Source: a virus
Length of the DNA: 64,000 bases
Strand: one strand, 5' to 3'
Virus record (IMG/VR): IMGVR_UViG_3300013014_000020
Location: 1 to 64,000 of that record
Numbering within the stretch: position 1 is the first letter of the stretch; every line of letters starts with the position of its first letter. Made by a program: the position numbers and the translations under genes. The notes under the pieces are model-generated. The model was given only the letters and a program-made list of their open reading frames with translations. It did not search any database and was not told the origin of the DNA. Of the stretch, positions 5,106 to 42,741 are shown one piece after another.

Positions 5106-5327
5106 ATGCCTATAGACATAACAATTAACGATATTTCTGGTCAAACACCATTTGATGTTTACGTATGTAACACCGGACAGACATATTGTGTTTATTCGGC
5201 GACAATAACATCTGGTAACTTACCTTACACTTTTGAAGTTCCAATTTCTTTTCTAAACTCTGAAAGTGTTAATTTAAGAATTATTGATGATAATGACTGT
5301 CAAATAAATCAAATACTCATAATATAA
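5106..5327 (+). CDS. small virion-type protein, paralog of 14703..15005
   Basis: Shared pattern I..I(S/T)G..PF..Y.C.....CVY...IT......P..F......L..ID...C. Confidence 0.75.
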   Translation: MPIDITINDISGQTPFDVYVCNTGQTYCVYSATITSGNLPYTFEVPISFLNSESVNLRIIDDNDCQINQILII

Positions 5328-6403
5328 TGGCTTGTACTGAAATAAATTTTTGTGTAGATTCTGGTGGTAACCTTTATGATGGTGAATACTCAACAGATAC
5401 CAGTACATATAATGGGTTTACTTCTTATACTGGTGATAGTGTACCATTTTTTATTTACTATTCATTAACTGAAGATAGATGGTGTTTATCTACAAGTTTG
5501 GGTGGTTCTTGTTTACAATTTGGTCCGGTTGGTATTGTTAGTGATTGTCCTGATTTTGATGAAAGTTTTTTTATAACTGGAATTTGCATTACAACCACAA
5601 CAACAACTTCTCCTTGTGATGTTTTTGATTTTGAGGCGATTTTTGATTGTTTGGTCCCAACGACTACCACAACAACCACGGTAGTTCCAACAACAACTAC
5701 AACAACTACAATCCCTTTTGATCCTTGTACTGGAGTGTCGGTAAATGCCTCAATAACTGCTTATACAACGACAACAACAACAATACCTGTTACAACCACA
5801 ACAACAACAGAAATTATAAGACCTTGTAATTTTGATGGTATTGTAACATTTAATACATTTGATGAATATATGAGATGTGGTAATAGTAAGAAATTTAGAG
5901 ATTGTTTAACGGGTCTTGAATATTTTTCAAATGAATTAGTATTTAACGAATCTGGTGATACTTTAATTCAAAATTGGGTTTATAAATCAACAATAAATGG
6001 TGTGTCGACTTGTGTTACGTTTATGGGTCTGGTTGATAACATTAGTGGTTCAGATTTGGTTGTAATAAATGAAACTTTAGGTTCCGAATTACAAGGTGCT
6101 TGCTTAGAGTGTGTTCCGGATCAAACAACTACAACAACCACAACGGTCGCACCAACAACAACCACCACAACAACTGCTGGTTGTCAAATAATTCAATATA
6201 TTGTGCAAAATAATGGAATTACTATTCAAGAGCTTAAATATTTTGATTGTGATGGTAATACAATAAATTGTATAATTGGTACTGGTATTAATTCAACTAG
6301 AAAAATATGTTCAAGTAATCTTCCGATTGTATTACCTAATTCCAATGTTTTGGTATATCCAGTTGTTCCACAAACATTTTGTAGTTCTGTAACAATTTGT
6401 TAA
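5327..6403 (+). CDS. Cys-rich virion/fibre protein with multiple poly-Thr tracts
   Basis: Seven Thr6-7 runs separating Cys-containing beta-rich modules. Confidence 0.75.
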   Translation: MACTEINFCVDSGGNLYDGEYSTDTSTYNGFTSYTGDSVPFFIYYSLTEDRWCLSTSLGGSCLQFGPVGIVSDCPDFDESFFITGICITTTTTTSPCDVFDFEAIFDCLVPTTTTTTTVVPTTTTTTTIPFDPCTGVSVNASITAYTTTTTTIPVTTTTTTEIIRPCNFDGIVTFNTFDEYMRCGNSKKFRDCLTGLEYFSNELVFNESGDTLIQNWVYKSTINGVSTCVTFMGLVDNISGSDLVVINETLGSELQGACLECVPDQTTTTTTTVAPTTTTTTTAGCQIIQYIVQNNGITIQELKYFDCDGNTINCIIGTGINSTRKICSSNLPIVLPNSNVLVYPVVPQTFCSSVTIC

Positions 6404-7144: not shown

Positions 7145-9850
7145 TTAGATATCTATCTTAACTACGTATTGTTGGATGCCTTGTCTTAATGTTGGTGATT
7201 GTAACTTTGACATTACAAGAATATCCTTATTATCATCAAGTAATGCAATTTCAGTTACATATGATTTCGTACCTGGAGTCCAAGATGGATTTGTTGATAC
7301 CTGGAACTCACTAGAACTTAAATTTATTTTATATTTCATTTCATAAATTGTTGCCATTATGTCTGTTTCAAATGAACCATAGAAATAATATTCATCACCA
7401 AAATTTAATGATTGTCCTGTATATCCAACTGGTGTTAAGTTAACATAATCATTTAAATTGTAGAATGGTGCCGAATTGTAGTTGTCTGGAGAAATAATAA
7501 ACGTTGTTCCAGTTAATGAGCTTTGGGTTATAAAACCATCTATAAAACTATTTTGAATTTGTGTTGTAAAATCTATTTTTTTCCACATTGCAGGATTTGG
7601 TCTTTGTCCTGTTGGTACTTTTTGTACTAAAATTTCAAATTCGTCACCAAAAAAACCATTTGGTGTAATACAAGGTGAACAATTTGGTAAATAATTTGTT
7701 GTTGTAGTTGTTGTTATTGGAAATATGGTTGTTGTTGTCGTAGTACATCCACTACAACCATCAACCAAATCAATAATTAAATCACCTTTTGATTGGATAC
7801 CAGAACTTGAACAGACTACAGTTCCAGTATTTCCTGGTAATGTAAGCGGTGATGTTTTTGTTTCATCACAACAAGGTGTAAATATAATATTTGTACTTCC
7901 AGTAAGTTCTGTATTTGTAATTTGATATCTACCACAGAACGGATTAGTTGTTGTTGTCGTAGTAATAGGTTGCAAACTATATGGTTGTATTAAACAATTA
8001 AAATCACCACCAAATCTTACTGCAACATTTTTTGAAACGTCTGGGCTACACTCATTATTATTACCTTTAATCGACGAATAATAATTACAATGTAATGAAT
8101 TTGTAAAACAATAAGTGTTATTAATTCTATATGTCACAAATAAAGTTTGTGAATCACCAGTTAATATACCTTGTGATGATGTTGTTGTATCGCAAGTATT
8201 TGGTGTTATTAGAGAAACTTGTGGTGCCGGTAATGTCCAGTTTCTATTTGACTTATACGACATAGCCGCAATAATTTCTTCATCATCAATAATAACTAAC
8301 TTACTATCTGGAAAAACCTTACCAATCCTATTTGGTAATCCATCTGAATTAGGGTTTGTGTCCCACAAATGATAATATCTAATACCAGGTTGATTCATTC
8401 CTTCATTTTTTGTGGATTGAATGTAATATGGTGTAAACAACTCTTTACCATCAAATCCTGGAGGATCTACCCAGAAAGTTTGACCATTACAACAATTTGG
8501 GTTTTTATGCCACATTAACCAAGGAATATGTAGCTTAAAGTTTCTTGCTTGTCCAGTTGTATCATCTGGATTGGTTGGGTCATATGGTTCTAACGCAAAT
8601 TTTTCACCATAGAAGAAATCAATTGTTTGGTTTGTATAATGAATTATTGCGATTGCTTTTTGTTCTTCTGGTTTTACTGGAACAATTTCACCAAAAGAAT
8701 TATAATAAAAAGTATAACTTGTATCTGTTTGTCCTAAACTAGAATTATACCCAAAATATTCTTTACTACCAATATAATCTATTGATCCAAATTGTGTGTA
8801 GTCTTTAAATTGACTTGGGATCAAGCCTGCTGGGTTTTCGGTCCAAGGAATATTCATATTCCATACTTTAACATCAAATTGATCTGTATCACAAATAGAT
8901 TCAAAATCAATAACTTGTTCACTCCAATGTGGCATAGGTGTTATACTATCGTATAATTGTGTCATACTAGAAGGGTATATAATTACCCTAGAATAACAAT
9001 TTACAGGATAACAAGTATAATTTGGTATATTTCTATCAACAGTTATTGTGTCCAAACAAACATCAACAATTTTATATGTTAACATAATTGTGCAGCTCTG
9101 TACTGGCATAAAACATTCCGGTGCTGGAGGTAATGGGCATTGTGGACTAGGTGTTGGTGTTAAACACGGAGTCTTTGACGGTGTTGGGGTTGGTGTTGGT
9201 GATAAACAAGGTAGAATAGTTGTTGTTGTCGTTGTAGATGTTGTTGTCGTTGTTCCAGTAGGTGTTGGGGTTGGTGTTGGTAAATTTATACACAAACAAT
9301 TACAATCCGCTTGTCCATCATAAAAAATTGTTATAATATCACCAATTTGTGGTTTTACGGTGTTTGGTGTGTTACATCCAGAATAAATAAGTGTGATTTG
9401 GTTTGACCCGTCTAATGTTGACATATCAACAACATAATTACCGGTTAAAGCATATTGATTACCCGTCAAAACTTCCCAATTTACTGTAGATGCTGTTGTG
9501 ATTCCACCAAAAAATCCTCTTAATGGGGCTCGATTAAAAACTGGATCAATAATAGAATCCATAAATGGAATACCATAAGTGTTACTTTGGTTGGTATCGG
9601 CATAATAAGGATATTTAACATATTGTCTATTTGATTGTGGAACACCAACAGTATTTTGACTATTGAATCCAGGTTCTAACACAAAACTATTAGATTGGTT
9701 GTAGGTTTGGGGTAATTTATCATATGATACTTCACTATCTCCAACTTGGAAATAAGATATTTTGAAATTACCTTGTGATAATTTTTGTCGTCCTGCGTCT
9801 GTAATTCTTGTGTTTACTAGACCTGCGGTATTTTTAATTATGTATGCCAT
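7145..9850 (-). CDS. tail fibre/baseplate protein with split DUF3751-like termini and Thr/Pro-Thr tracts
   Basis: N-terminal ITDAGRQKL...YFQVGD and C-terminal VTEIALLDDNKDILVMSKL..P; interior Cys-rich modules and T/PT repeats. Confidence 0.65.
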   Translation of the reverse strand: MAYIIKNTAGLVNTRITDAGRQKLSQGNFKISYFQVGDSEVSYDKLPQTYNQSNSFVLEPGFNSQNTVGVPQSNRQYVKYPYYADTNQSNTYGIPFMDSIIDPVFNRAPLRGFFGGITTASTVNWEVLTGNQYALTGNYVVDMSTLDGSNQITLIYSGCNTPNTVKPQIGDIITIFYDGQADCNCLCINLPTPTPTPTGTTTTTSTTTTTTILPCLSPTPTPTPSKTPCLTPTPSPQCPLPPAPECFMPVQSCTIMLTYKIVDVCLDTITVDRNIPNYTCYPVNCYSRVIIYPSSMTQLYDSITPMPHWSEQVIDFESICDTDQFDVKVWNMNIPWTENPAGLIPSQFKDYTQFGSIDYIGSKEYFGYNSSLGQTDTSYTFYYNSFGEIVPVKPEEQKAIAIIHYTNQTIDFFYGEKFALEPYDPTNPDDTTGQARNFKLHIPWLMWHKNPNCCNGQTFWVDPPGFDGKELFTPYYIQSTKNEGMNQPGIRYYHLWDTNPNSDGLPNRIGKVFPDSKLVIIDDEEIIAAMSYKSNRNWTLPAPQVSLITPNTCDTTTSSQGILTGDSQTLFVTYRINNTYCFTNSLHCNYYSSIKGNNNECSPDVSKNVAVRFGGDFNCLIQPYSLQPITTTTTTNPFCGRYQITNTELTGSTNIIFTPCCDETKTSPLTLPGNTGTVVCSSSGIQSKGDLIIDLVDGCSGCTTTTTTIFPITTTTTTNYLPNCSPCITPNGFFGDEFEILVQKVPTGQRPNPAMWKKIDFTTQIQNSFIDGFITQSSLTGTTFIISPDNYNSAPFYNLNDYVNLTPVGYTGQSLNFGDEYYFYGSFETDIMATIYEMKYKINLSSSEFQVSTNPSWTPGTKSYVTEIALLDDNKDILVMSKLQSPTLRQGIQQYVVKIDI

Positions 9851-9868
9851 TATCCAATAAATATGCTT

Positions 9869-11947
9869 TTATATTTTTTGTGCTGCAATTTCAGCAGGTG
9901 GGTTTACAACTTGTACATCACAACATATACAATTATTGACTGTTGGGTTTCCAACAAGATATAAACTAAATGTTCTATTTGCGCCACGACATAAACCTAG
10001 TGGTAAATTATTTATAATATCAGTATACGAACCGGTTATTGTTTGTCCACCACTTATTGTTAATTGTTTTGTATAATTCTTTATTTGTTGATTCTGCGTT
10101 ATTGGAAGAACAGAGCAATTAAGACTCAAAACACTTTGACTATTATTTATAGACGGAATACCCATATCACCTAAACCACCGTCAAATGTAACAACATTAT
10201 CTAATGTTGGGGCTGGTGTAATGCTTGCTGGATAGTAATTAAGTTGAGAATATTGTTCGATAGAAAAAGTAATTGTCTGATTTGGTGTAAGATTATTAGA
10301 TGGTTGTATCTGGAATGTATTTAAATTATCGTCAATTGTTAATGTTAAAACAAAAGTTTGTGGATTTGTTTGTGTTAATGTAACAAAATTAGGTGTTGAT
10401 TGATTACCTAAACTATCTTTTACTACAACAATGTAGTTTCCAGCGTTTAAATTAGAGAATGTTGATAATGTACTAAAAGTTGTTCCGTTGTTTATTGAAT
10501 ATTGATACGGCGGAACGCCTCCATACCCCTGTATTGTTATACTACCTTTTGTTTCACAAATTAAATCGTTTTGTGTTATGTTTGCAGTAACTTCTTTATA
10601 ACTTACACAAGTGCCTGTTGTTACGGTAATGTCTATAATATTAGGGTTACCAAGTCCTTGCCAACCAATTAAAGGTGGTGTTGCTGGATTGTTATTTATA
10701 ATACTACCAAAAATTGAGCTTCCAGATACAACCCACTGATTTGTCGTTCCGGTATTAAAATACATAAACGATATGTTATCATCTGATAACCAACTTTGAT
10801 TACCGTTAGTTATACCATAGGGTTCAAACTGAATTTGATCTAAAATTACATATTCTACTCTTGTTCCACTTCTTCTTCTAATTGTCATACACAAATCACC
10901 ATATACTGGTAGTGGTTTTATTGTTGTGGTTGTTGTGGTTGTTGGTGTTTCAGCGGTTAAAACACAAGTTGTGTTGGTGGTAAAATCACCATAGAAATCA
11001 ATAACAGTTGCATTGTAATTTCCAGCGTTAAGATTATAAATTAATGGTGTAATACTTCCGGTACTCCAAATTATTGTATAGGGTGATGTTCCACCAGTTA
11101 TTATTAATGTTGCTGCACCATCAAATGAATTATAAGTTGATGGATGTGTTACTAAACACTCAACTTCCATCGGGAATATTGTTAAGACATCACATTCATT
11201 TCTTGGTTGTATTGTAATTGGTACAGAACAAGAACATCCTTCTTCTTGGTTAATTTCAAATCCATAAGTTTCAACACAGCTTTGTACTCCAATGTATTTT
11301 ACTTCGTAACATTTTTCTGGTATTGGTATAGGGTCTGTTATAGTGATTAATAATGAATTATTTACATATCCAGAAAAAATTGGATTTGCACTAGTGAATG
11401 TTGGCACAGTTCCATCACAAGAAGATATTTCATAACAATCTGTATCGCAAGGGTGGTTTTCAACGCAGCTTGGGCAACCTAAGTCACCAAAAACTTCTGG
11501 GTTTTTAAATATTGGATAATAATTTGGTTGTAAACCAAATTTTATTGTTTTTTTATCGTAAACATAAAAACATCCATCATATGTTTCACCGCTAGGTGAT
11601 GAAGGAACATAATTATCGCAGTACACAGAATCGTCAAGATTCAAATAATCATCATTTGCAAGAATTGTTATATATTGATTATCAATACAACAAGAACTTA
11701 AAAAATAAATTGAATTTGGTGTTACAAATGGGTCACGTTCAAAATTACTTGTGTTACCGGTTATTGGGAATAAAGAACAAAAATTTATTATAGCACTTTC
11801 TTGTGGTTCAAAACTATCAGAAACTGTATTTCCAGAACAATCAATAAACGTTAATGTTTCAGTTGTTGTTCCGGTATTAACAATACTAGTGACTTTACAA
11901 GTTGTAAAACAATTTAGAACTAATGGTGGGAATTGGATTTTAGCCAT
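9869..11947 (-). CDS. SprB-repeat-containing virion protein
   Basis: GGTSPYTIIWSTG...NLNAGNYNATVID and GGVPPYQYSING...NLNAGNYIVVVKDSLG repeats; Thr7 tract. Confidence 0.75.
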   Translation of the reverse strand: MAKIQFPPLVLNCFTTCKVTSIVNTGTTTETLTFIDCSGNTVSDSFEPQESAIINFCSLFPITGNTSNFERDPFVTPNSIYFLSSCCIDNQYITILANDDYLNLDDSVYCDNYVPSSPSGETYDGCFYVYDKKTIKFGLQPNYYPIFKNPEVFGDLGCPSCVENHPCDTDCYEISSCDGTVPTFTSANPIFSGYVNNSLLITITDPIPIPEKCYEVKYIGVQSCVETYGFEINQEEGCSCSVPITIQPRNECDVLTIFPMEVECLVTHPSTYNSFDGAATLIITGGTSPYTIIWSTGSITPLIYNLNAGNYNATVIDFYGDFTTNTTCVLTAETPTTTTTTTIKPLPVYGDLCMTIRRRSGTRVEYVILDQIQFEPYGITNGNQSWLSDDNISFMYFNTGTTNQWVVSGSSIFGSIINNNPATPPLIGWQGLGNPNIIDITVTTGTCVSYKEVTANITQNDLICETKGSITIQGYGGVPPYQYSINNGTTFSTLSTFSNLNAGNYIVVVKDSLGNQSTPNFVTLTQTNPQTFVLTLTIDDNLNTFQIQPSNNLTPNQTITFSIEQYSQLNYYPASITPAPTLDNVVTFDGGLGDMGIPSINNSQSVLSLNCSVLPITQNQQIKNYTKQLTISGGQTITGSYTDIINNLPLGLCRGANRTFSLYLVGNPTVNNCICCDVQVVNPPAEIAAQKI

Positions 11948-11959
11948 ACTAATAAATAA

Positions 11960-12940
11960 TTAGTTTTTTGTTTTTTCAATATAAGATTTCATAACCTCAA
12001 TATATTTTATTGTTGTGCTATTAGAATCTATATAATCGAAATGATTTTCATTTTCACGAAGTTTTTCTATTGGGTCAACATTTATGTAATCACCTTTATA
12101 AAATTTTGTAGATTTAAGGGTGTCGGTTACACCTGCCATATGAAGAATAGGCATTTTTTCATATTTTTCTACGTTATCTGTGGCCCAAGAAAAATCAAGT
12201 TCATTTGTAATTTCAGTTTTATAGTCAGATAACCATAAATTCCAAAGTAATGACCACATTTCTGCGGTCCAAAATTGTATTTGACCAGGATTGATTGGGA
12301 ATCTTCTTTGGTAGTCTAACATTTGATTATATAATGGTGTGCAGTCATCATAAACTTTTTTCCAAAACTCTGAATTTGTATTTTTTATAAGATATTGACC
12401 ACCACCAGAATTTTTTTGATTTTCTTTTATTATTTCCACATCAATACCAACAACACTTACCATTTCTTTTATTAATTGCCCTTTTTCTGAATTTGGGTGT
12501 CTAGTTTCGTAGTTATTACAACAATACATAATATAATCATAACCAATATATCCAATTGTGTCGGACAAGTAATTAATACCACCTTTAGCTAGTTTTTTGA
12601 AATCCGGTAGTGTTCTAAAAATTATATCTGCATCGTGTAGAAATATTTTTTTACCTAATTTTGGAAATTCCTTTAAAAATTGTGAAACAAGATATGGTTT
12701 TATGCTAGGGATATAGGATTTTACATCTCTATTATCTTCATAAAAATGAATATTTACACCTAGTTCTTTTAACTCTAAAGCACCTTTACTCGGTTCTTTA
12801 ATTCCGTGAACTAACGCTAATATTACGTGAATTTGATTTGGGTCAATTCCTTTTTCTATAAAATTGTGAACATAAAGTTTAATTTGCCAATGAAAATATG
12901 GAACATCAGGTTGTGCTGTAACAAATACAATATCTTTCAT
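11960..12940 (-). CDS. GT-A fold glycosyltransferase resembling peptidyl-Ser/Hyp O-glycosyltransferases (GT96/GT95-like)
   Basis: YFHWQ, YIPSIKP, LHDADIIFR (DxD), GGGQY, WTAEMW and ILHMAG motifs in order. Confidence 0.72.
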   Translation of the reverse strand: MKDIVFVTAQPDVPYFHWQIKLYVHNFIEKGIDPNQIHVILALVHGIKEPSKGALELKELGVNIHFYEDNRDVKSYIPSIKPYLVSQFLKEFPKLGKKIFLHDADIIFRTLPDFKKLAKGGINYLSDTIGYIGYDYIMYCCNNYETRHPNSEKGQLIKEMVSVVGIDVEIIKENQKNSGGGQYLIKNTNSEFWKKVYDDCTPLYNQMLDYQRRFPINPGQIQFWTAEMWSLLWNLWLSDYKTEITNELDFSWATDNVEKYEKMPILHMAGVTDTLKSTKFYKGDYINVDPIEKLRENENHFDYIDSNSTTIKYIEVMKSYIEKTKN

Positions 12941-30906: not shown

Positions 30907-32745
30907 TTAAGAAAAGTTAATTCCTTTAAAGTTTAAAACTCTAACATTAATATCTTTATTTGGAAATCTAATTTGATACATTTGAGTTGGTTCTGCAAAT
31001 ATTGTATCAGCAATTAATTCTATTTGTCTTGTTGATGGGTCAATATATCTTTGTGATGTTTGTGATGACGAGTACTGACCACCAACTTTATTAAAGAATT
31101 GTACGTCAGATATACTTATAACACCATCTAAATTTTGAATCCGTTTTCTAATTTCAGAAATATATATATTTTCACCCATTTGTCTATTAGCTGGTGAAAA
31201 ATATTGGGTTATTATATCTATAATTTGTGTAACAATTGTTCCTTGATTTTGACTTGCATCTAAAACAACATCAACATTTGTACTTAAATCAATAACATTA
31301 GCACTTTCAACAGAAATATAATCGTTAATCATTCTGTAATTTGATAGGTAATTAGCAATATTCTGTTTTAGTGTATTGGATGTTATTTCTGTCAGTTTTC
31401 CATCACTATCATAAGATAATAATTTAATCTTAATTTTATTATTTTCTTCTGTGATTGTAACTTTAGCTGGTGCACCAAATTGTGAAGGCATTGTTCTAAT
31501 AATTGATTCATAATCATTAATTGTAACGGCTCTATTTTGTGCTGAAAAGTTAAACGATACCATTTGTCTTACTTCTTCAGTCGATGGATTGTTTGCACCA
31601 CCAATTGCCGCTGTAACGTTATTACATCTTAAAGAATTGATAACACTTCTATTAACGTTATCTGAAGGGCCATTAACCGCAAAATTAACAGTTCCAATTT
31701 GACTAATCACATTTATACCTAAATTTGTATTACTACCCCCTCCAACCCTATATTGTATAAACATTGTTGTGTTAGGTTTTAAAGCACTACCTAATGTTAG
31801 ATTATTTGTGTATTTTGATAAATCAAATGAAAGACCGTCTCTTGCAAATTCTCTTAATTGATCCTCAGCTGAAGTATTACCACCACCAAATGTCATTTTA
31901 AAGAATCCTTCTGGTGTATATTCGGTTATAAATTTATCTGTTGTTGTAACATATTTTCCAACCTTAATGCCTGGGCTATCAGATGTTTTTGTTGGGTCTT
32001 CGATAAAAACTCTATCCTCCATTAAAGCTTGAACTTCATACCACCTATTATTTTGTCCAAGAAATTCTTGAGTTGGTGGTATTGTTACATATTGTGTTCC
32101 TTCTTTTATTAGTACACTTGTTATACCTAATACATTTTTTTCCGGTAAAAATAATTCATAAAAAGGTCTAACGTCATTAGGTGTTACAACTTTTTTAAAT
32201 ACCTTTGTTACACCATTAACAACAACTTCACGTTTAATAATTGTGTAGTTTATTATTTTTCCGTTTGAATCAAAATTAGGTATTTTTAATCGATTTGGTG
32301 AGCCCTCGGCATTTACAGCGGATGAAAAATCAATATCATAAACAGTTTCAAATGGTTGTCCGGCGCCAAGAACTTGCGCTCCTCTTCTTAATACACCACA
32401 GTAACTTAAATTTTCTTTATCACCAAAGGCTGGTACTGTGATTGAAAAATCAACAAGTGCGACGGAAGGTCTTTGTCCCGGAATTTTTAAACCGTAAGTC
32501 CTTGCGATATTAAAAACTGAAGATCTTTGTTGTGCATACTGAAGGACAGTCTCTTGGATACTTCTATCAATGTGAAATTGTAGGTTGTCTGTAACGGCGG
32601 CGTTTAAGTCTAAAAACACCGAAAAAATACCGGCGTCGTTAAAGTTTTGTACAAGGTCTGGATAATACTGTCTTGTAAAATTAATAAGTTCGGTTCTTAT
32701 TCCTTGAAAGTCCCTTGTTGTGTACGATATTTTCTTTTCTGCCAT
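30907..32745 (-). CDS. baseplate wedge subunit (T4 gp6 / baseplate J-like)
   Basis: YTTRDFQGIRTEL N-terminus, YRVGGG and QNRAVTINDY motifs; adjacent to gp25-like gene. Confidence 0.88.
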   Translation of the reverse strand: MAEKKISYTTRDFQGIRTELINFTRQYYPDLVQNFNDAGIFSVFLDLNAAVTDNLQFHIDRSIQETVLQYAQQRSSVFNIARTYGLKIPGQRPSVALVDFSITVPAFGDKENLSYCGVLRRGAQVLGAGQPFETVYDIDFSSAVNAEGSPNRLKIPNFDSNGKIINYTIIKREVVVNGVTKVFKKVVTPNDVRPFYELFLPEKNVLGITSVLIKEGTQYVTIPPTQEFLGQNNRWYEVQALMEDRVFIEDPTKTSDSPGIKVGKYVTTTDKFITEYTPEGFFKMTFGGGNTSAEDQLREFARDGLSFDLSKYTNNLTLGSALKPNTTMFIQYRVGGGSNTNLGINVISQIGTVNFAVNGPSDNVNRSVINSLRCNNVTAAIGGANNPSTEEVRQMVSFNFSAQNRAVTINDYESIIRTMPSQFGAPAKVTITEENNKIKIKLLSYDSDGKLTEITSNTLKQNIANYLSNYRMINDYISVESANVIDLSTNVDVVLDASQNQGTIVTQIIDIITQYFSPANRQMGENIYISEIRKRIQNLDGVISISDVQFFNKVGGQYSSSQTSQRYIDPSTRQIELIADTIFAEPTQMYQIRFPNKDINVRVLNFKGINFS

Positions 32746-35008: not shown

Positions 35009-36868
35009 TTATATAATCTCACATCCTGACGCTCCACAAGCGATTTCACCGCTTAGGTTGGTATTATCCTGTAATTCAATTACTTTAGTTAAGTCAATAT
35101 TGGTTAATGATCTAACTAATTTTTCATACTCTTCTTTAGAACAATCGGTAAAAGGTGCCTGTTTGTAAGTATGGTTTGAATAGGGTAATACTGATAAGCC
35201 GTTGTAAAATTTTCTTGATTTCCACATCCAGTCTCCAACTAAATCCCATTCGTCTTCTTTAATTGAGATTGTCGCTGATACATTGTGTGTGTTTTGTCCT
35301 GTTCTATGTCCATTTCTAATCCACTCTTGAGATACTTTTTTCACTCTTTCTAGTATTTGAAATACTGATTCATATCTCAAAATTGATCCTTCCGGTGACA
35401 TCTGTGGTATTGTAATTACCGCGGTATCGTGTGGTCTAAAAAACTCATCTTCCACAAGTTCTGGGTGATTTATTGCAAGATATGTATAAATTGCCTCATT
35501 TTTTCCAACACGGATTCTTCTTAAATAATAATCATTATGCCAAGCGTGAATACCAGATGCCGTACCTAAAACCAATGATGATGTGCCAGATGGTTTTACA
35601 GTCGTTGTACGGGCAGCTTTGTTAATGCCAATTAAATTTGCAACTCTTTCGTTTTCTTCTTTAACGGCTTGAGCTGCTGCTTTCATATCATAACCCAACA
35701 CAACACCTGATCCAATTCCAGTCATTCCAATACCAATAAGTGCATCTTTTTCTGTTGTTCTTTTCCAAACATCTCTCAAGTAATGGAAGTCTGTATAACC
35801 CGCTTGTAGTGTTCCGATGAATGCCGCACCTTTAACTCTATTTTCAAAATCTTCTTGAGATTCCAAATCTGAAGCGTTCACTTCACATAGATTACAGAAT
35901 TGGTATGGACGTAAACCGATTTCACAACAAGGATTTGTTCCCCAATCTTTATCGTTTGATAAATAAATCCCTGGTTCACCAGCACCTGATAATTCAATTC
36001 TTTTCCAAAGACCCATAAAGTATTCTTGTGTTACTTTATGTCTTAATAGAACAGCAGAATTGTTTGCTCTACCTCTTTGTGGGTTTGATTCCCACCAATT
36101 TCCAGATTTACAAGAAATCATTTCATCATCATCAGCTGAAAATAATGAGATAAGTGCTGCACGTCTGATTCCTCCTGCTAATACCGCATCAGCAATATGA
36201 CATACGATGTCGTGAGTTTCAATTGGTGTTAATTTATCACCATCGTTTTTGTTTTCCAGCACCTTTGTAATGTGGTGGATACAATCTTTTAATGGTTGAG
36301 GTCCCGGCGCTTTTCCTCCTGATGTTACAAGCATAGCTCCCTTTTGTCTAATATCTGAAAAGTCAAATATTGGTGTTGATGCTTTGTATCCGAAATAAGA
36401 CTCCATTAATACTTTAATAGCATCTGCCCATCCTTCAATAGAATCTCCAATTAAGTATCTTCTTGTTCTTGTTGAGTTTGGTTTTTTAATTTCAGGTAGT
36501 TTATCAACGTGATGTTTTTGAACTGAAAACCCTACTCCTGTTCCACCTAGTAACAAAAACATTGTTTCTGAAAATGCGTCAGTGTGGTCTATCGGCAAAT
36601 AAGCACAGTTATAAACTCTGTTTGGTGAGATTTCAATTGGCTTACCACCAAATTGTAATGATCTCATTGATGGTAAGATTTTCTTATCATATACCATTTT
36701 ATAGACGTTTTCAATTTCGTCTTTAATTTTTGGGTATTTTTTTTGGTGCATTTCCTTATTTCTTGTCACCAATTCTTCCCATGTCTCCCTTCTATTTAAT
36801 TCAGGGACAAATTTAGCGTATTTCATATACACCGTAATATCGCTCAATATTTTTTGTGAAATATCCAT
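35009..36868 (-). CDS. nrdJ: class II (adenosylcobalamin-dependent) ribonucleotide reductase
   Basis: PSMRSLQ, YNCAY, TNPCCEI, TTVKPSGT and C-terminal redox pair ACGASGCEI; no beta subunit nearby. Confidence 0.92.
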   Translation of the reverse strand: MDISQKILSDITVYMKYAKFVPELNRRETWEELVTRNKEMHQKKYPKIKDEIENVYKMVYDKKILPSMRSLQFGGKPIEISPNRVYNCAYLPIDHTDAFSETMFLLLGGTGVGFSVQKHHVDKLPEIKKPNSTRTRRYLIGDSIEGWADAIKVLMESYFGYKASTPIFDFSDIRQKGAMLVTSGGKAPGPQPLKDCIHHITKVLENKNDGDKLTPIETHDIVCHIADAVLAGGIRRAALISLFSADDDEMISCKSGNWWESNPQRGRANNSAVLLRHKVTQEYFMGLWKRIELSGAGEPGIYLSNDKDWGTNPCCEIGLRPYQFCNLCEVNASDLESQEDFENRVKGAAFIGTLQAGYTDFHYLRDVWKRTTEKDALIGIGMTGIGSGVVLGYDMKAAAQAVKEENERVANLIGINKAARTTTVKPSGTSSLVLGTASGIHAWHNDYYLRRIRVGKNEAIYTYLAINHPELVEDEFFRPHDTAVITIPQMSPEGSILRYESVFQILERVKKVSQEWIRNGHRTGQNTHNVSATISIKEDEWDLVGDWMWKSRKFYNGLSVLPYSNHTYKQAPFTDCSKEEYEKLVRSLTNIDLTKVIELQDNTNLSGEIACGASGCEII

Positions 36869-36892
36869 TTTTTACAAATTTAATTATTTTAT

Positions 36893-38281
36893 TTAAGATT
36901 TTTGTTTTTCTTGTTCTCTTTGTTGTCTTTTTTCCAACAATTCTTTAACTCTTTGTCTTTGTCGTTCTTCTTTTTGTTCTTCTAAACCTAAGAATGTAGT
37001 TGTTGATTCAGTATCAATTTCAATCATCGCATTATCAAATTTACAATTTTCAAACACCACACCGTCATCTCCAATACGAGATTTGGTAATTGCTATTGTG
37101 GCTAATTTCATTTCTTTTTGTTGTAATGTCTTTGCTACTGAAATAATAACGTGTCCAACTTGTGCTTTCTTGATAGAACCACCCATTTGGTCTGTTGTAA
37201 CAACTTCTGACGAAATAGAAGCTCTATTTCCCTGTGTTGCCGTCCAACCAACAAGGTTTAATTCGTGACACATAGCTTCAAAACCTCTCATTACAGATCC
37301 TTCACTTTTCCACTCATCACCTAGGTTTTTATCTGGAACAACACAATCAATGTAGTCTAAAACAACCATATCTATTTTAACACCGTCTGCAATCATTTTT
37401 CTTATTTCATTTTTAATTTGCAACATAGTTTTTGTATCAGATGGTAGTTTCTTTAAGATTAACTCATTTGGCATCGTCTCCTTGATTTCGTTTACTTTTT
37501 TCATCACCTCTTCCTTTTTTTCTGACAATTCGTCAGGGTGAATCTTTGTCCAGAGAATAAAATGTTTTCTCTGTATCACTTTTGGGTTGTCTTCAAAAAA
37601 TACTTGAAGAACGTTAAATCCTAGGTTAAATGCGTGGTTTGAAATCTTTGTAAGAATGGTTGATTTACCTACACCGGTAGGTGCTAATATTACACCAATT
37701 TCCCCTTTTGCTAGTCCTCCTTTCAACAATCTATCAATACCTGGTATTCCCATTGGTATTGGGTGTCTATAGTCTTCGTCTAGTACTTGATCTAGGTTTG
37801 AAAAAACATCTAACATTGATGTGTCTTTTGACCCAACAAGTAATGCATCTCTTACTAATTCTTCTAGTGTGTCGTAGTTTTCAAACTCACCTCCGTCTAT
37901 AATCTTTTGAGCCTTTTTCATTACTTTCTGTAACTCTTGTTGTTTACAGAATTTAAGTGCCTTTTCTTGTACGAAATCCACTCCGTCGATAGGTGCAGAC
38001 TTGATTTTCTTAACTGTATCAAGTACAACCTTAACAGCGGTTTCTTGTTGTAATTCGGATTTTGCGACTTGTTCTAAAGTATCAAATGATGGTGTGTGAT
38101 CATACTTTTTATAGTATTCTTTTATCATTTGAATAATAATTTTGAAATACTTGTTTTCAAAATAATTGTTTTCAATTACGTCAATAATCGAATGTGAAAA
38201 GTCTTTGTCTACAATGATTTGATTAAGTAATTGTATTTGAAAATTGTTGCCAAGATATTCAAAGTTTTTGTTTGTCGCCAT
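36893..38281 (-). CDS. dnaB: replicative DnaB/T4 gp41-like helicase
   Basis: Walker A APTGVGKS, VVLDYID, WTATQGNR and ITKSRIG. Confidence 0.9.
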   Translation of the reverse strand: MATNKNFEYLGNNFQIQLLNQIIVDKDFSHSIIDVIENNYFENKYFKIIIQMIKEYYKKYDHTPSFDTLEQVAKSELQQETAVKVVLDTVKKIKSAPIDGVDFVQEKALKFCKQQELQKVMKKAQKIIDGGEFENYDTLEELVRDALLVGSKDTSMLDVFSNLDQVLDEDYRHPIPMGIPGIDRLLKGGLAKGEIGVILAPTGVGKSTILTKISNHAFNLGFNVLQVFFEDNPKVIQRKHFILWTKIHPDELSEKKEEVMKKVNEIKETMPNELILKKLPSDTKTMLQIKNEIRKMIADGVKIDMVVLDYIDCVVPDKNLGDEWKSEGSVMRGFEAMCHELNLVGWTATQGNRASISSEVVTTDQMGGSIKKAQVGHVIISVAKTLQQKEMKLATIAITKSRIGDDGVVFENCKFDNAMIEIDTESTTTFLGLEEQKEERQRQRVKELLEKRQQREQEKQKS

Positions 38282-38314
38282 AATTTTTCCTTTTATCAGT
38301 AAAGATAAATACTA

Positions 38315-38764
38315 TTAGTTTTGAATAAATTGTGGATAAAAATAATTAAATTTTCTACCTGAAAAAATGTCAGTAAGTTCAGATAATATACTTTTCAGCT
38401 TTGGGCGTAGGTCTACGGTATATCTGACCTTTGGGGGGTATACTTTTGCGTCAAATGTTCTCTGACAAATTGTCATATTTTCAACCTTAATGTAAAGGTT
38501 AAAATTTTCTTGTCCTTCTGTAATTGAAGTGTTTAATACGTCAGGATTTTCCATAATCTCATACTGGTTTTCCATCATATAAACAACTGACCTCATTTTT
38601 AAATCATACTGAAGTTCATTACAAAATGTTCTAATGTAATCATAGAATTGTTCTGACTTGTGTGCATTTTTGTTAAATCCTTTTACATTAAAGAATCTTT
38701 GTACCACAATGTTGTCGTTACACATCAGAATAAACTCTACTTTTGTTACGTCTTGTTCTTTCAT
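38315..38764 (-). CDS. hypothetical protein in the replication operon
   Basis: 149-aa ORF between exonuclease and helicase. Confidence 0.7.
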   Translation of the reverse strand: MKEQDVTKVEFILMCNDNIVVQRFFNVKGFNKNAHKSEQFYDYIRTFCNELQYDLKMRSVVYMMENQYEIMENPDVLNTSITEGQENFNLYIKVENMTICQRTFDAKVYPPKVRYTVDLRPKLKSILSELTDIFSGRKFNYFYPQFIQN

Positions 38765-38768
38765 TTTT

Positions 38769-39785
38769 TTACTTTTTTGTTTTGTTTCTAAAATTTGTTT
38801 TTTCTTTTCTTGATAGTTTTAAAAATGGTTTTAAAAAATTTACCCAAGCGTCATCACCTTTTGGGAGAAATTTGAAGAATCCGTCGTCCATCATCATTCT
38901 AATTAGATTTCTATGTCCTCGTCCGTCAGGATCCAATGACTCTGAATAGTATAGTCTAACCAGTTCTTTTCCATCATCTGATATTAATGGATTAGCTAAA
39001 TCCACTAATTTTTCATTGATTGTGAAAAACTCCTCTCCAAATATTCCCTCTTTGGTTTTTCCGCTTAGGAGATTTTGTAAGGCAACATTTCCTTTTTGTT
39101 CTGAAAGTAAACTTTCTGCCTTTGTTAAAATATCGGTATATTTTAATTCAGTATCAAGTATTTCAGGAAACAATTTAAGAAATGTTTTTTCACCCAAATA
39201 AAAAATTCCGTCAATATTATCCGAACTATCACCGGTTAATATTTTGTAAGTCATAACATTATAATGTGGTATTTCTGACGCATCCATTTTAATACCATCA
39301 CCATTCTTATAATATCGTTTTTGTTGGGGTGAATATATAGTTACCTTCTCGGAAATTAATTGTGTTAAATCTCTATCAGAAGAAAAAATGGTCTTATCTT
39401 CATCCTGGGATATTTGACAATAGTAAGCTATCAAGTCGTCGGCCTCCGACTGTTCAACTTCTAATTGTCTAACAAACATTTCTTCTAGGTATTGTTTTAC
39501 TCTATTCTTTTGAGTAATAAAAGATTGTTCTTTAAAATCTTCGTCGTTTTTTTGTTTTCGATTAAGCTTGTACTTGGGGTAGATAAGTCTTCTTTGTGAA
39601 GATCCAGTTTCACTATCCCAAAATACAACAACTTTATTATAATTACTTTCCTCTAAAAATCGTCTTAAAGTATTTAAAAAATGCCAAGTACCACCAACGT
39701 GTTCTCCTTTGTTAAAAAAGTCTCTAACACCGTGAAATCCAATTTTTAATAGATTATTTCCGTCAACTAATAAAGTTTTAGTCAT
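38769..39785 (-). CDS. 5'-3' exonuclease / T4 RNase H-like flap endonuclease
   Basis: LLVDGNN, YKLNR, EADDLIA, SSDRDLTQL and LTGDSSDNIDG. Confidence 0.92.
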   Translation of the reverse strand: MTKTLLVDGNNLLKIGFHGVRDFFNKGEHVGGTWHFLNTLRRFLEESNYNKVVVFWDSETGSSQRRLIYPKYKLNRKQKNDEDFKEQSFITQKNRVKQYLEEMFVRQLEVEQSEADDLIAYYCQISQDEDKTIFSSDRDLTQLISEKVTIYSPQQKRYYKNGDGIKMDASEIPHYNVMTYKILTGDSSDNIDGIFYLGEKTFLKLFPEILDTELKYTDILTKAESLLSEQKGNVALQNLLSGKTKEGIFGEEFFTINEKLVDLANPLISDDGKELVRLYYSESLDPDGRGHRNLIRMMMDDGFFKFLPKGDDAWVNFLKPFLKLSRKEKTNFRNKTKK

Positions 39786-40800
39786 TAGTTGTTTCGTTTA
39801 TTGGGTTTGACAACACCGATTCTTTTTCTACAATGTAATCACCAAGAAATTCACTAAAGATAGCTTCCATTACAGGCACACAAATTGAGTTACCAGCTAA
39901 AGATACGTGTCCCTTTGTTGATAACGATGTTGTAAGTAACAAATCTATGTCTTCATCACGAACACCCATAAATCTATAACCCTCTCTTGCTGTGATATTT
40001 CTTACTCTACCGTCTTCAGTCATAATTTGTGGTGACCCACTTGTTGTAAGACAAGGTGAACAACCGTCAACAGAGTAAATTCTTCTTGCCTGATCATAAC
40101 TTACATCATCTCTTCTTGCAATTAATCGACAAACAGAGTTACCTTTTGGTTGATGGTTGGTATATTGACAATCAATAAATAATTCTGGGTCCTGTGTGTC
40201 TTCAATAAAAGGTCTCATCGGAACTCTTGTTTTTTTGTGATTGTCAACATTTTCCATTCTTTGTTTTACATCTTCTTTTTCACCATCTAAAACTGAAATC
40301 ATAAACACCCTTTCTCTATTTTGTGGACAACCAAAGTCGGCTCCATTTAAGATTTTCCAATACGATGTATAACCTAGTCCACGAAGAAAATAAATGTGTT
40401 TTTTAAAATTTTCATAGTGATTTTTAGATACAAGATTTTTAACATTTTCCATTAACAAATACTTTGGTCTATTTGTTGATAAAATTCTTTCAACATCAAA
40501 TAATAATCCACTTCTTGTTCCTTCTTTAATCCCTCTTTGAACGCCTGAAATTGAAATGTCTTGACAAGGAAAAGAATATGTTAATAGATCACACTGTGGA
40601 AAATTATTGTGGTTGATTTTTGTAATATCACCTAAATTACCCATTTGTGTCTCGTGTAATACATCATAGCACTCATTCGCTTGTTTGAAATTGTCACAGT
40701 TTGCAACATTCTCATAATTAACTCCAATGTATTTAAGTGCTAATTCTTGTGTTCCGTATCCAGAGAACAAAGAAATTAATTTTAATTTATTCTTGCTCAT
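39778..40800 (-). CDS. DNA (cytosine-5)-methyltransferase, orphan
   Basis: Motif I LFSGYG, IV SFPCQ, VI ENV, VIII PQNRER and X AGNSI. Confidence 0.92.
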   Translation of the reverse strand: MSKNKLKLISLFSGYGTQELALKYIGVNYENVANCDNFKQANECYDVLHETQMGNLGDITKINHNNFPQCDLLTYSFPCQDISISGVQRGIKEGTRSGLLFDVERILSTNRPKYLLMENVKNLVSKNHYENFKKHIYFLRGLGYTSYWKILNGADFGCPQNRERVFMISVLDGEKEDVKQRMENVDNHKKTRVPMRPFIEDTQDPELFIDCQYTNHQPKGNSVCRLIARRDDVSYDQARRIYSVDGCSPCLTTSGSPQIMTEDGRVRNITAREGYRFMGVRDEDIDLLLTTSLSTKGHVSLAGNSICVPVMEAIFSEFLGDYIVEKESVLSNPINETTND

Positions 40801-41797
40801 ATACTTTTTCTTCTTTTAAATCAAATTCACCATCTACACCTATAATTGTTTTCCAATATTCGGCATATTCACTTTTGTAAGTTTCAATAGACTTCTTTTC
40901 TTCTGTTGCGTCTTTTCCAGGTAAAAACCCGTGAGGCGTTACAATAATTTTACCATCTTCAAATCCAAGTCCGTTAATATGGTTTTTCATAACCGATACT
41001 TTTGTTCTTGATGCAAATTTAACAGTTCTTTTATCTTTGGTTGCCGTAATTTTTGTTGTTCCAGCACCTTTTTGATTTCCATATAAAAATACCAAAGATG
41101 AGTTTAACCAAATTGCTTCACCGCCTTTTGCTTTGATTTTTGGTTGTCCAAATGGATTATCTGGTAATTCAACCCAAGGTTGGTTTACGATAATTAAAGT
41201 GTTTTCAAATTTTGAATCCGCTTTTCTTGATCCAGAAATACGTTGGTTAATTCCCATACCAATCTTATCCGCTAAAACACTTGCGTTGTGTTGTTTGCCA
41301 CCCTTTCCTTCGTATGTCATTTTACAAGGAACAGATCCAACTGAATCCCACATAATACATAAAGAATAGTCTAACTCACCTTTTTCTTGAGCATCTAATA
41401 ATTCATTAATGTATTCTGTGATTTGTTCAATATAACTAAAATTGTTGTTAAACAAGAAGAAACCATCCCAAGTTAGTTCACCAGTTTCCTCATCAACAAC
41501 TTCTTCACACTCAAAACCCATAAGTCTGGAGTGTTCAAAAGACCATTTTTGTTCTGTAATAATAAAAACAGGTAGTATTTCTTTTTTCTGTGCATCAACT
41601 GCGGTTTTAACAAGTGCTGTTGTTTTACCGGTATCTGAATGTCCCAAAAACATATTAATATGTCCCATAGCTGGACCTGGAAGTCCTACCGCATCCAAAA
41701 ATGCCGGTCCTAAATCAAAGTATCTTTGTGGTTTGTATTTTGCGTCCGACGAGAATTTTTTCTTAATCGAACTAAAGTCATTTTTCTTGATTGCCAT
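40787..41797 (-). CDS. recA: RecA/UvsX-like recombinase
   Basis: Walker A GHSDTGKT, WDSVG, IIVNQ, KGGEA and KNH. Confidence 0.88.
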   Translation of the reverse strand: MAIKKNDFSSIKKKFSSDAKYKPQRYFDLGPAFLDAVGLPGPAMGHINMFLGHSDTGKTTALVKTAVDAQKKEILPVFIITEQKWSFEHSRLMGFECEEVVDEETGELTWDGFFLFNNNFSYIEQITEYINELLDAQEKGELDYSLCIMWDSVGSVPCKMTYEGKGGKQHNASVLADKIGMGINQRISGSRKADSKFENTLIIVNQPWVELPDNPFGQPKIKAKGGEAIWLNSSLVFLYGNQKGAGTTKITATKDKRTVKFASRTKVSVMKNHINGLGFEDGKIIVTPHGFLPGKDATEEKKSIETYKSEYAEYWKTIIGVDGEFDLKEEKVYEQE

Positions 41798-41822
41798 ATA
41801 ATTTTCTTTTTAAAAAGATAAG

Positions 41823-41860
41823 AAAAAATGGGTATATAGTCCACCTATATACCCATTTTT
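41823..41860. terminator. intrinsic terminator after the SSB gene
   Basis: Perfect 16-bp stem AAAAATGGGTATATAG / CTATATACCCATTTTT with a 5-nt loop. Confidence 0.8.
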
Positions 41861-41874
41861 ATTTAGAATTTTTT

Positions 41875-42741
41875 TTAGAATGGTAACTCTTCATCAACAT
41901 CGTCACCGGTTTGTGGATCCTCAACCTTTGTTTCAGTTTTTGTTTTTCCACCACCCATTGAAATTTCTTCTTCAGAAGTATTGCTGTAGATGTATTTTCC
42001 AGCATCGGAGTCCCAACGTGGTGTTTCTCCTCGTGCGATTGCTTCAAGGTATTCAGTTGCTTTTTTAGAATAAACATCTTCCCAAGTAAGTTCATCTTCA
42101 ATCCAAGAAGTCATTGTTTCTTCATTTTCGTGAACAGATCCCGCGTCTTCGTACATAACAGTTTGGATAACTGTGTAGAATGCACCTTTTGGTGTTTTTG
42201 CTTTGGTTAATTCAAGGATAATGTCACGACCCGTTGTCGCATCTGTAATATCACCTTTAGCTCTCCAAATAGGAATAATTTTGTCAAGGATTCCTTCGTT
42301 TTTGTAATTGTGTTTAAAACGCCAGAATTTAACTCCGTCCGACTCATTATCACGGTCAATTACTTTAACAATATAAAACTTACGTGGTTTGTATTGTTTA
42401 GCAAGTTCCTTGTCAGAATCTCTACCCGTAGACATAAGAACATCATAAACTTCACTTAAAGGTGAACGCTCATTGTCATTTTTTCCTGGATCATAAAATT
42501 TCTGCCATTTTCCATCTACTTGAATCTCGTGAAACCATACTTCTTTAAAAGGTGAAGAACCATCAGGTGTTGGTAAGATTCTTAATCTTTTTTGACCTTG
42601 TTTTTCGTTATCCTTAAGTATTGCAGCAAAATACTTTTTCATTCTTTCTTCTTGTGTGAATTTTGCAGTGGAAGAAGAGCCACCTTGTTTTGCATTCTCA
42701 TACTGAGCCAAAACCGCATCTAAAACATTGTTTGTCGCCAT
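41875..42741 (-). CDS. single-stranded DNA-binding protein (T4 gp32-like)
   Basis: RLRILP...PFKEVWFH, FYIVKVIDR, GRDIIL and acidic tail ending DEELPF. Confidence 0.85.
   Translation of the reverse strand: MATNNVLDAVLAQYENAKQGGSSSTAKFTQEERMKKYFAAILKDNEKQGQKRLRILPTPDGSSPFKEVWFHEIQVDGKWQKFYDPGKNDNERSPLSEVYDVLMSTGRDSDKELAKQYKPRKFYIVKVIDRDNESDGVKFWRFKHNYKNEGILDKIIPIWRAKGDITDATTGRDIILELTKAKTPKGAFYTVIQTVMYEDAGSVHENEETMTSWIEDELTWEDVYSKKATEYLEAIARGETPRWDSDAGKYIYSNTSEEEISMGGGKTKTETKVEDPQTGDDVDEELPF

Follow-up and report, generated by a model that had tools for sequence, protein, structure and literature searches.

A 326-residue protein encoded by an uncultured jumbo phage is predicted here to be a soluble glycosyltransferase. 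We consider it likely, in the absence of any biochemistry, that this enzyme works in the cytoplasm and initiates the O-glycosylation of virion proteins at their poly-Thr tracts. As we envisage it, the enzyme would take a host nucleotide-sugar and place the first sugar on the threonine hydroxyls of these tracts before or during assembly, and the outcome would be a mucin-like O-glycan coat on the virion. In the jumbo phage, the acceptors would be internal Thr linkers in two fiber-like proteins encoded downstream of the transferase, in a Cys-rich protein encoded on the opposite strand, and in an extension of the tail sheath; in small siphophages of Firmicutes, they would be the poly-Thr tails at the C termini of the major capsid and major tail proteins. 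Since the gene appears with Thr runs on head, tail, and fiber proteins in many unrelated phages, the phages that carry it probably sugar-coat their own particles, which no experiment has shown. We also favor, with somewhat less assurance, a broader reading in which a Thr tag and a dedicated transferase of the hydroxyproline O-arabinosyltransferase (HPAT) superfamily form a widespread, portable module that makes mucin-like O-glycan brushes on capsids, tails, and fibers. In that reading, the module would extend to phages whose hosts are Bacillota, Bacteroidota, or members of other phyla, among them cultured phages of Enterococcus, Lacticaseibacillus, Lactobacillus, Staphylococcus, and Chryseobacterium.

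The phage and the neighborhood of the transferase gene

The source record, IMGVR_UViG_3300013014_000020, is a 115-kb sequence from an uncultured phage with a CheckV completeness of 39%. The window, by which we mean the whole 64,000-nt stretch that was analyzed, has a G+C content of 31%. Close relatives of the phage reach 290 to 318 kb, which identifies it as a jumbo phage, and it may fall within the recently named moraphages (PMC12619734). These relatives and the SprB-type repeats suggest a Bacteroidota host. A near-identity DNA search of the neighborhood against cultured phages returned no match.

The genes around the transferase gene all lie on the minus strand, in a tail and fiber block that starts at a gene for a baseplate wedge subunit (Table 1). 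Between these two genes, large proteins are encoded; SprB repeats occur in two of them, and one has a PHROG virion structural match. Because the 732-residue SprB-repeat protein has such a match, we place the transferase gene within a virion gene block, although most of its neighbors had no match in PHROG or Pfam. The initial annotation described the gene as lying between a YadA-like fiber protein and SprB/poly-Thr proteins; the SprB/poly-Thr side of this description stands, but the 564-residue upstream protein that was called YadA-like had no Pfam or PHROG match. Just downstream of the fiber block are genes for a primase-like protein and a phosphoesterase, with no further sugar enzymes.

TABLE 1 Positions of the transferase gene, candidate acceptors, and other features in the 64,000-nt window
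Feature	Position	Strand	Remarks
Cys-rich protein, 358 aa, candidate acceptor	5327-6403	+	Eight T6-T7 tracts as linkers between Cys-containing modules
901-aa protein, candidate acceptor	7145-9850	-	Five T5-T6 runs and PT/PS repeats between Cys-containing modules
Fiber-like protein, 692 aa, candidate acceptor	9869-11947	-	Directly downstream of the transferase gene; SprB-type repeat; TPTTTTTTT at residues 334-342
Predicted GT-A glycosyltransferase, 326 aa, soluble	11960-12940	-	PHROG 4417; HPAT/GT8-like superfamily; D103-x-D105 and H267 metal-site motifs; no membrane helix
SprB-repeat protein, 732 aa	15002-17200	-	Matches PHROG "virion structural protein"; no T5 or longer run
Baseplate wedge subunit	30907-32745	-	phrog_219, E = 1e-24; start of the tail/fiber block containing the transferase gene
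Replication block	35009-42741	-	Between baseplate/fiber genes and sheath; ribonucleotide reductase, DnaB-like helicase, exonuclease, DNA methyltransferase, UvsX-like recombinase, and SSB; flanked by unannotated giant ORFs (1873, 2326, and 1737 aa)
Tail sheath, 957 aa	60945-63818	-	Pfam Phage_sheath_1C and PHROG tail sheath; sheath domains at residues 659-948

Among the candidate acceptors, the 692-residue fiber-like protein has an SprB repeat that Pfam detects at an E value of 1e-5, below the curated cutoff, and (ACN)6 matches in its gene lie at positions 10923 to 10942. The 901-residue protein is kept two genes downstream of the transferase gene across the lineage, and Thr runs are always present there; an AlphaFold model of this protein, built from a 21-sequence alignment, reached a pLDDT of only 39. 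The 358-residue Cys-rich protein, which was absent from the acceptors listed initially, has no Pfam match, and 63 related jumbo-phage loci keep it in the same place, with 37 to 89% identity. The tail sheath bears T6 (residue 41) and T5 (residue 161) runs in its long N-terminal extension. The baseplate protein had been named as a target as well, and nothing was found that links it to Thr runs.

A predicted GT-A glycosyltransferase of PHROG 4417

The transferase frame is open over all 326 codons on the minus strand, and the plus strand of the same interval is full of stops. The six collinear motifs reported in the initial annotation are all present (YFHWQ at residue 15, YIPSIKP at 76, LHDADIIFR at 101, GGG at 179, WTAEMW at 224, and ILHM at 265), and they coincide with invariant or near-invariant columns of a 54-sequence family alignment (Y15, W18, Q19, Y76, D103, D105, G179, G180, W224, M228, W229, and H267). 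In this alignment, D103 is nearly invariant, D105, H267, and G270 are invariant, and K282 is conserved. The D-x-D, H267-x-x-G270, and K282 elements fit the metal and diphosphate site of retaining GT-A enzymes, with the caveat that this was judged without a residue-level superposition of active sites. The protein contains no hydrophobic stretch able to span a membrane.

Annotation by profile was of limited help. The protein belongs to phrog_4417 (E = 8e-70), a group of unknown function, and its sole Pfam match, to PF03407 (Nucleotid_trans), was below threshold (E = 0.019). It did not match PF01501 (Glyco_transf_8); a Pfam scan of the 54 family members brought up nothing above noise except a weak HPAT match in one of them, and searches of PDB chains with the protein sequence and with the family profile produced nothing significant. 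The family comprises more than 1100 close relatives from the jumbo-phage lineage and 848 clusters at 50% identity. It occurs in 77 cultured phage records, mostly from phages of Enterococcus, Lactobacillus, Staphylococcus, Lactococcus, and Clostridium, with one Chryseobacterium phage.

An AlphaFold2 model made from the alignment (pLDDT of 97.4, pTM of 0.94) is a single-domain GT-A structure. Foldseek and an exhaustive VIA search agree on this fold, with the retaining GT8/GT24/GT6 group nearest, and more than 100 GT-A structures matched with a Z score of at least 8. The top matches were glycogenin (Z = 15.2), Skp1 alpha-galactosyltransferase (GlaT1; Z = 14.8), UGGT (Z = 14.0), LgtC (Z = 13.8), WbbM (Z = 13.7), and GlyE (Z = 13.5). 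Given that these superpositions, with Z scores of 13.5 to 15.2 across about 210 to 245 residues, have only ~10% identity and a TM-score of ~0.45, they establish a shared fold class and not family membership. Structural comparison of this kind had been proposed as a check on the initial annotation, and it bore the annotation out in that the best matches are not DNA glycosyltransferases, with the lipopolysaccharide (LPS) and O-antigen enzymes LgtC and WbbM among the neighbors. Judged from the model, the protein is a metal-dependent GT-A glycosyltransferase of the uncharacterized phage family PHROG 4417. An alpha linkage is inferred from the retaining-type fold, and the sugar that is transferred is likewise a matter of inference.

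Relation to the HPAT family

The initial annotation likened the protein to plant SERGT1 and HPAT enzymes. These enzymes put the first sugar on hydroxyl side chains in low-complexity, Pro/Ser-rich peptides, and they are Golgi type II membrane proteins. Pfam family PF23452 (HPAT) is that of the plant hydroxyproline O-arabinosyltransferases of CAZy family GT95, to which SERGT1 (GT96) is related. The PF23452 HMM did not match the window protein even at E values up to 10, and it matched only 1 of the 54 family members (E = 0.09). A search for longer homologs found fusions but no plant homolog.

Evidence for a relationship comes instead from bacterial proteins. Of the 30 nearest named clusters in the ESM Atlas, 18 carry PF23452, which is the commonest Pfam label there. 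A true HPAT member (30.6 bits, above the cutoff) occurs in a Microthrix genome that also bears a fused homolog of the phage family. We gathered 129 relatives starting from this Microthrix protein, most with a precomputed PF23452 assignment, and aligned 38 of them for a profile. In hhalign, the phage family profile matched these 38 bacterial PF23452 proteins with 96.0% probability (E = 4.3e-9) over 262 columns, compared to 64% (E = 6.5e-5) against a single PF23452 member. The WQ, Y, DxD-xxFR, W-x-x-x-M, H, and K-x-x-Y elements were all in register, and so was each motif named in the initial annotation. On the strength of the ESM-Atlas labels, the Microthrix member, and the hhalign result, we regard the phage family as a sister of HPAT within one superfamily, though not as an HPAT member by the Pfam threshold. 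The plant-like resemblance is therefore real as far as sequence comparison can establish it, but it holds at the superfamily level only and rests on bacterial members of the family.

Approximately 20 bacterial PF23452 proteins (P0388 to P0411; relatives of L304:1333-2298) are fused to a PqqD domain (PF05402), a peptide-recognition element of RiPP systems. These fusions suggest peptide glycosylation in the HPAT sister family.

Thr runs and the transferase gene in jumbo and Firmicute phages

Thr runs in the jumbo-phage record are far beyond chance, with 18 (ACN)6 matches in 115 kb against 4 in the reversed control. All but one of these matches (17 of 18) lie 1 to 6.4 kb downstream of the transferase gene. 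Jumbo phages that bear the gene have 18, 10, and 12 Thr6 matches, whereas two relatives in which the transferase family is absent have 1 such match in 241 kb and none in 158 kb. Pro-Thr repeats persist in relatives that lack the gene, and the portion of the earlier proposal that made Pro-Thr tracts a target of the enzyme is therefore unsupported.

A contig of 5.3 kb that was assigned to a Woesearchaeota MAG (L224; CAYGYN010000024.1) encodes a transferase 67% identical to that of the window beside a Thr-run protein. It is probably a misbinned jumbo-phage fragment.

In Firmicute phages, the transferase gene lies between the gene for the major tail protein and those for the tail chaperones (phiFL1A), between the capsid gene and the head-tail connector (iLp84), after the capsid genes (Enterococcus phage VPE25), or near replication genes (herellevirus Bacchae), in the last case with a 168-residue protein ending in a Thr run encoded two genes upstream. 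Capsid and tail proteins of the carrier Firmicute phages end in poly-Thr tails, and T6 runs in the whole genomes of phiFL1A and iLp84 are confined to capsid, decoration, and tail proteins. We compared 27 phiFL-like IMG/VR loci from Enterococcus prophages, chosen for orthologous tail proteins (65 to 100% identity). T6 to T7 tails were found on both the major tail protein and the major capsid protein in all 12 loci with the transferase gene, while a run of T5 or longer was found in none of the 15 without it. The tagged capsid gene in these loci is four genes away from the transferase gene. Similarly, iLp84-type capsids of Lacticaseibacillus phages had a Thr tail in 36 of 36 cases with the transferase and in 0 of 32 without it, leaving no discordant capsid.

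The phylogenetic independence of these observations is thin. On a tree of the capsid core, the trait needs four changes, only two of which fall on well-supported branches, so that a sign test cannot reach significance; there are only two to four independent gain or loss events within one capsid family. Furthermore, since the phiFL-like transferase gene adjoins the gene for the tagged tail protein, part of the link could be due to coinheritance.

Two kinds of exception were observed. Two mosaic Lacticaseibacillus prophages from IMG/VR (L158 and L161) have a T7 run on the major tail protein, which ends in ETTTTTTTSK, together with a capsid that has no Thr tail and no transferase in the locus; the tail tag looks like an orphan left by recombination. 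Conversely, two VPE25-like phages carry the transferase but have only TTT-sized runs. In VPE25 (LT615366.1; L002:7710-7868), a start-less open frame of 52 codons overlaps the stop of a capsid-like gene in the -1 frame and encodes four T7 to T8 runs just upstream of the transferase. This arrangement looks like a programmed frameshift that would add a Thr tail to a fraction of the capsid subunits.

The pairing of the transferase with poly-Thr virion proteins, as put forward in the initial annotation, is thus upheld as covariation in two groups of Firmicute phages and in the jumbo lineage, and the gene is present in relatives with Thr tracts, the two mosaic loci excepted. The co-occurrence is demonstrated, whereas threonine as the acceptor is inferred from it.

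Homologs in bacterial genomes

We examined 80 bacterial loci, 35 with stand-alone forms of the transferase and 45 with fused forms. A Thr run occurred no more than 3 kb from the gene in 25 of the 35 stand-alone loci, compared to 1 of the 45 fused ones; of the 10 stand-alone loci without a nearby run, five are on short contigs. Across the bacterial loci, Thr-run density was 1.96 per 10 kb within 3 kb of the gene and 0.10 per 10 kb beyond, an enrichment of ~19-fold, and this clustering is local and found across many bacterial phyla. Since 44 of the 45 fused homologs have no nearby Thr run, the family as a whole is not tied to poly-Thr. Fusion partners are PF11397, O-FucT, Glyco_transf_7C, GT1, GT2, GT6, GT32, methyltransferase, and F5/8 type C domains. 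Given a second glycosyltransferase domain and the absence of Thr runs, the fused bacterial homologs probably build other glycans.

Chromosomes of Bacteroidota (Chitinophaga, Mucilaginibacter, Pedobacter, and Sphingobacterium; L233, L236 to L240, and others) carry one to three two-domain copies of 500 to 620 residues, in which the transferase is joined to a Glyco_transf_7C-type domain; no Thr run lies within 8 kb of them. They could be polysaccharide enzymes with two activities, in the manner of WbbM or LARGE. Other homologs, of about 660 residues, are fused to radical SAM and SPASM domains (P0272 to P0274 and P0277), some on contigs of up to 299 kb.

Alternative acceptors

It is possible, though in our view unlikely, that the enzyme modifies a non-protein host glycan such as teichoic acid, capsule, LPS, or a lipid-linked precursor, perhaps as a barrier to readsorption or superinfection, and that the poly-Thr runs are flexible linkers that have nothing to do with the enzyme and accompany its gene through linkage. 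Alteration of host surface glycans by prophage glycosyltransferases is well known, the structural neighbors include builders of lipooligosaccharide and O-antigen (LgtC and WbbM), and the Bacteroidota two-domain homologs without nearby Thr runs look like polysaccharide enzymes. Linkage could also operate in phiFL-like phages, where the transferase gene abuts the tagged tail gene. However, the capsid tag tracks the transferase perfectly from four genes away, Thr runs are lost genome-wide in the jumbo relatives that lack the gene, and the same pairing turns up in capsid and tail families that are unrelated to one another, and in several phyla. The position of the gene, inside late head and tail operons rather than at moron or lysogeny positions, also argues against a role in modifying the host surface.

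A protein acceptor other than the Thr runs seems to us quite improbable. The enzyme might glycosylate itself, as does the self-glucosylating glycogenin that is its top structural match, or it might act on other Ser, Thr, or Tyr sites, or only extend a sugar started by the host. Fusion of many homologs to glycosyltransferase domains (PF11397, O-FucT, GT6, GT2, and GT1) is in keeping with multistep glycan assembly. Against this, the covariation is specifically with Thr runs. In addition, no other glycosyltransferase is annotated in the stretches of phiFL1A and iLp84 that were read, so that, as far as annotation goes, nothing else encoded by the phage is there to start a chain. A role confined to chain extension is therefore unlikely, and initiation is the inference that we prefer.

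Glycosylation of phage DNA on hydroxymethyl-pyrimidine bases to escape restriction, which is the classic job of phage glycosyltransferases and might be hinted at by the thymidylate synthase-family protein encoded in complete jumbo relatives and VPE25, can be largely set aside because the fold is GT-A and not the GT-B of the T4 and RB69 DNA glycosyltransferases and because phiFL1A and iLp84 carry the gene with no thymidylate synthase or hydroxymethylase homolog, while the jumbo-phage thymidylate synthase matches score like ordinary ThyA (E = 1e-90) and the tie to Thr runs would be left unexplained.

Implications and comparison with known systems

We found no description in the literature of this enzyme family, of the Thr tags, or of their pairing, and no glycan has been observed on these phages. 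In one glycostain study, ten other phages tested negative; none of the carrier phages identified here was among them. The roles first suggested for a glycan coat (stiffening, shielding, and adhesion) remain speculation. If initiation of O-glycosylation on poly-Thr tracts is correct, self-glycosylation would be common in phages of gut, dairy, and aquatic bacteria, including Enterococcus and Staphylococcus phages used or proposed for therapy, and glycan coats could alter antibody recognition, mucus binding, stability, and host range. PHROG 4417 would gain a function, and the superfamily of a plant cell wall enzyme would be linked to bacterial viruses. A Thr tag and one soluble enzyme would also offer an easy means of O-glycosylating recombinant proteins in the cytoplasm. 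The idea is directly testable, as several of the carrier phages have been cultured.

The best structural matches, the GT8 enzymes glycogenin, LgtC, GlaT1, and GlyE and the GT24 enzyme UGGT, share with the phage protein the arrangement of a DxD motif and a downstream His. Several of these GT8 and GT24 enzymes use proteins, or glycans attached to proteins, as acceptors in the cytoplasm, and GlyE decorates a serine-rich repeat adhesin. The phage protein differs from GT8 in having no Glyco_transf_8 match, and likeness of fold says nothing about the acceptor. Unlike plant HPAT, it has no membrane anchor, and its presumed acceptors are Thr runs rather than hydroxyproline or Ser.

To our knowledge, actinophages are the only phages in which phage-encoded enzymes have so far been shown to glycosylate virions. 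The alpha- and beta-glucosyltransferases of T4 and the arabinosyltransferase of RB69 are likewise phage-encoded, cytoplasmic, and dependent on host nucleotide-sugars. However, these are GT-B enzymes (PMC6024577) that act on hydroxymethylcytosine DNA, whereas the present family is predicted to be GT-A and is found in phages without a hydroxymethylase. In the mycobacteriophages Che8, Corndog, and Myrna, phage glycosyltransferases are reported to decorate the C termini of capsid and tail-tube subunits (Freeman et al. 2023, Cell Host Microbe, cited in PMC12619734 and PMC12894461). The phages described here differ in that their hosts are Bacillota and Bacteroidota, their tags are homopolymeric Thr, with internal linker tracts in the jumbo phage, and experimental proof is lacking. 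Although glycans have not been observed on them, the Firmicute phages have a layout like that of the mycobacteriophages, with C-terminal tags on the same two proteins and the enzyme encoded in or beside the structural operon.
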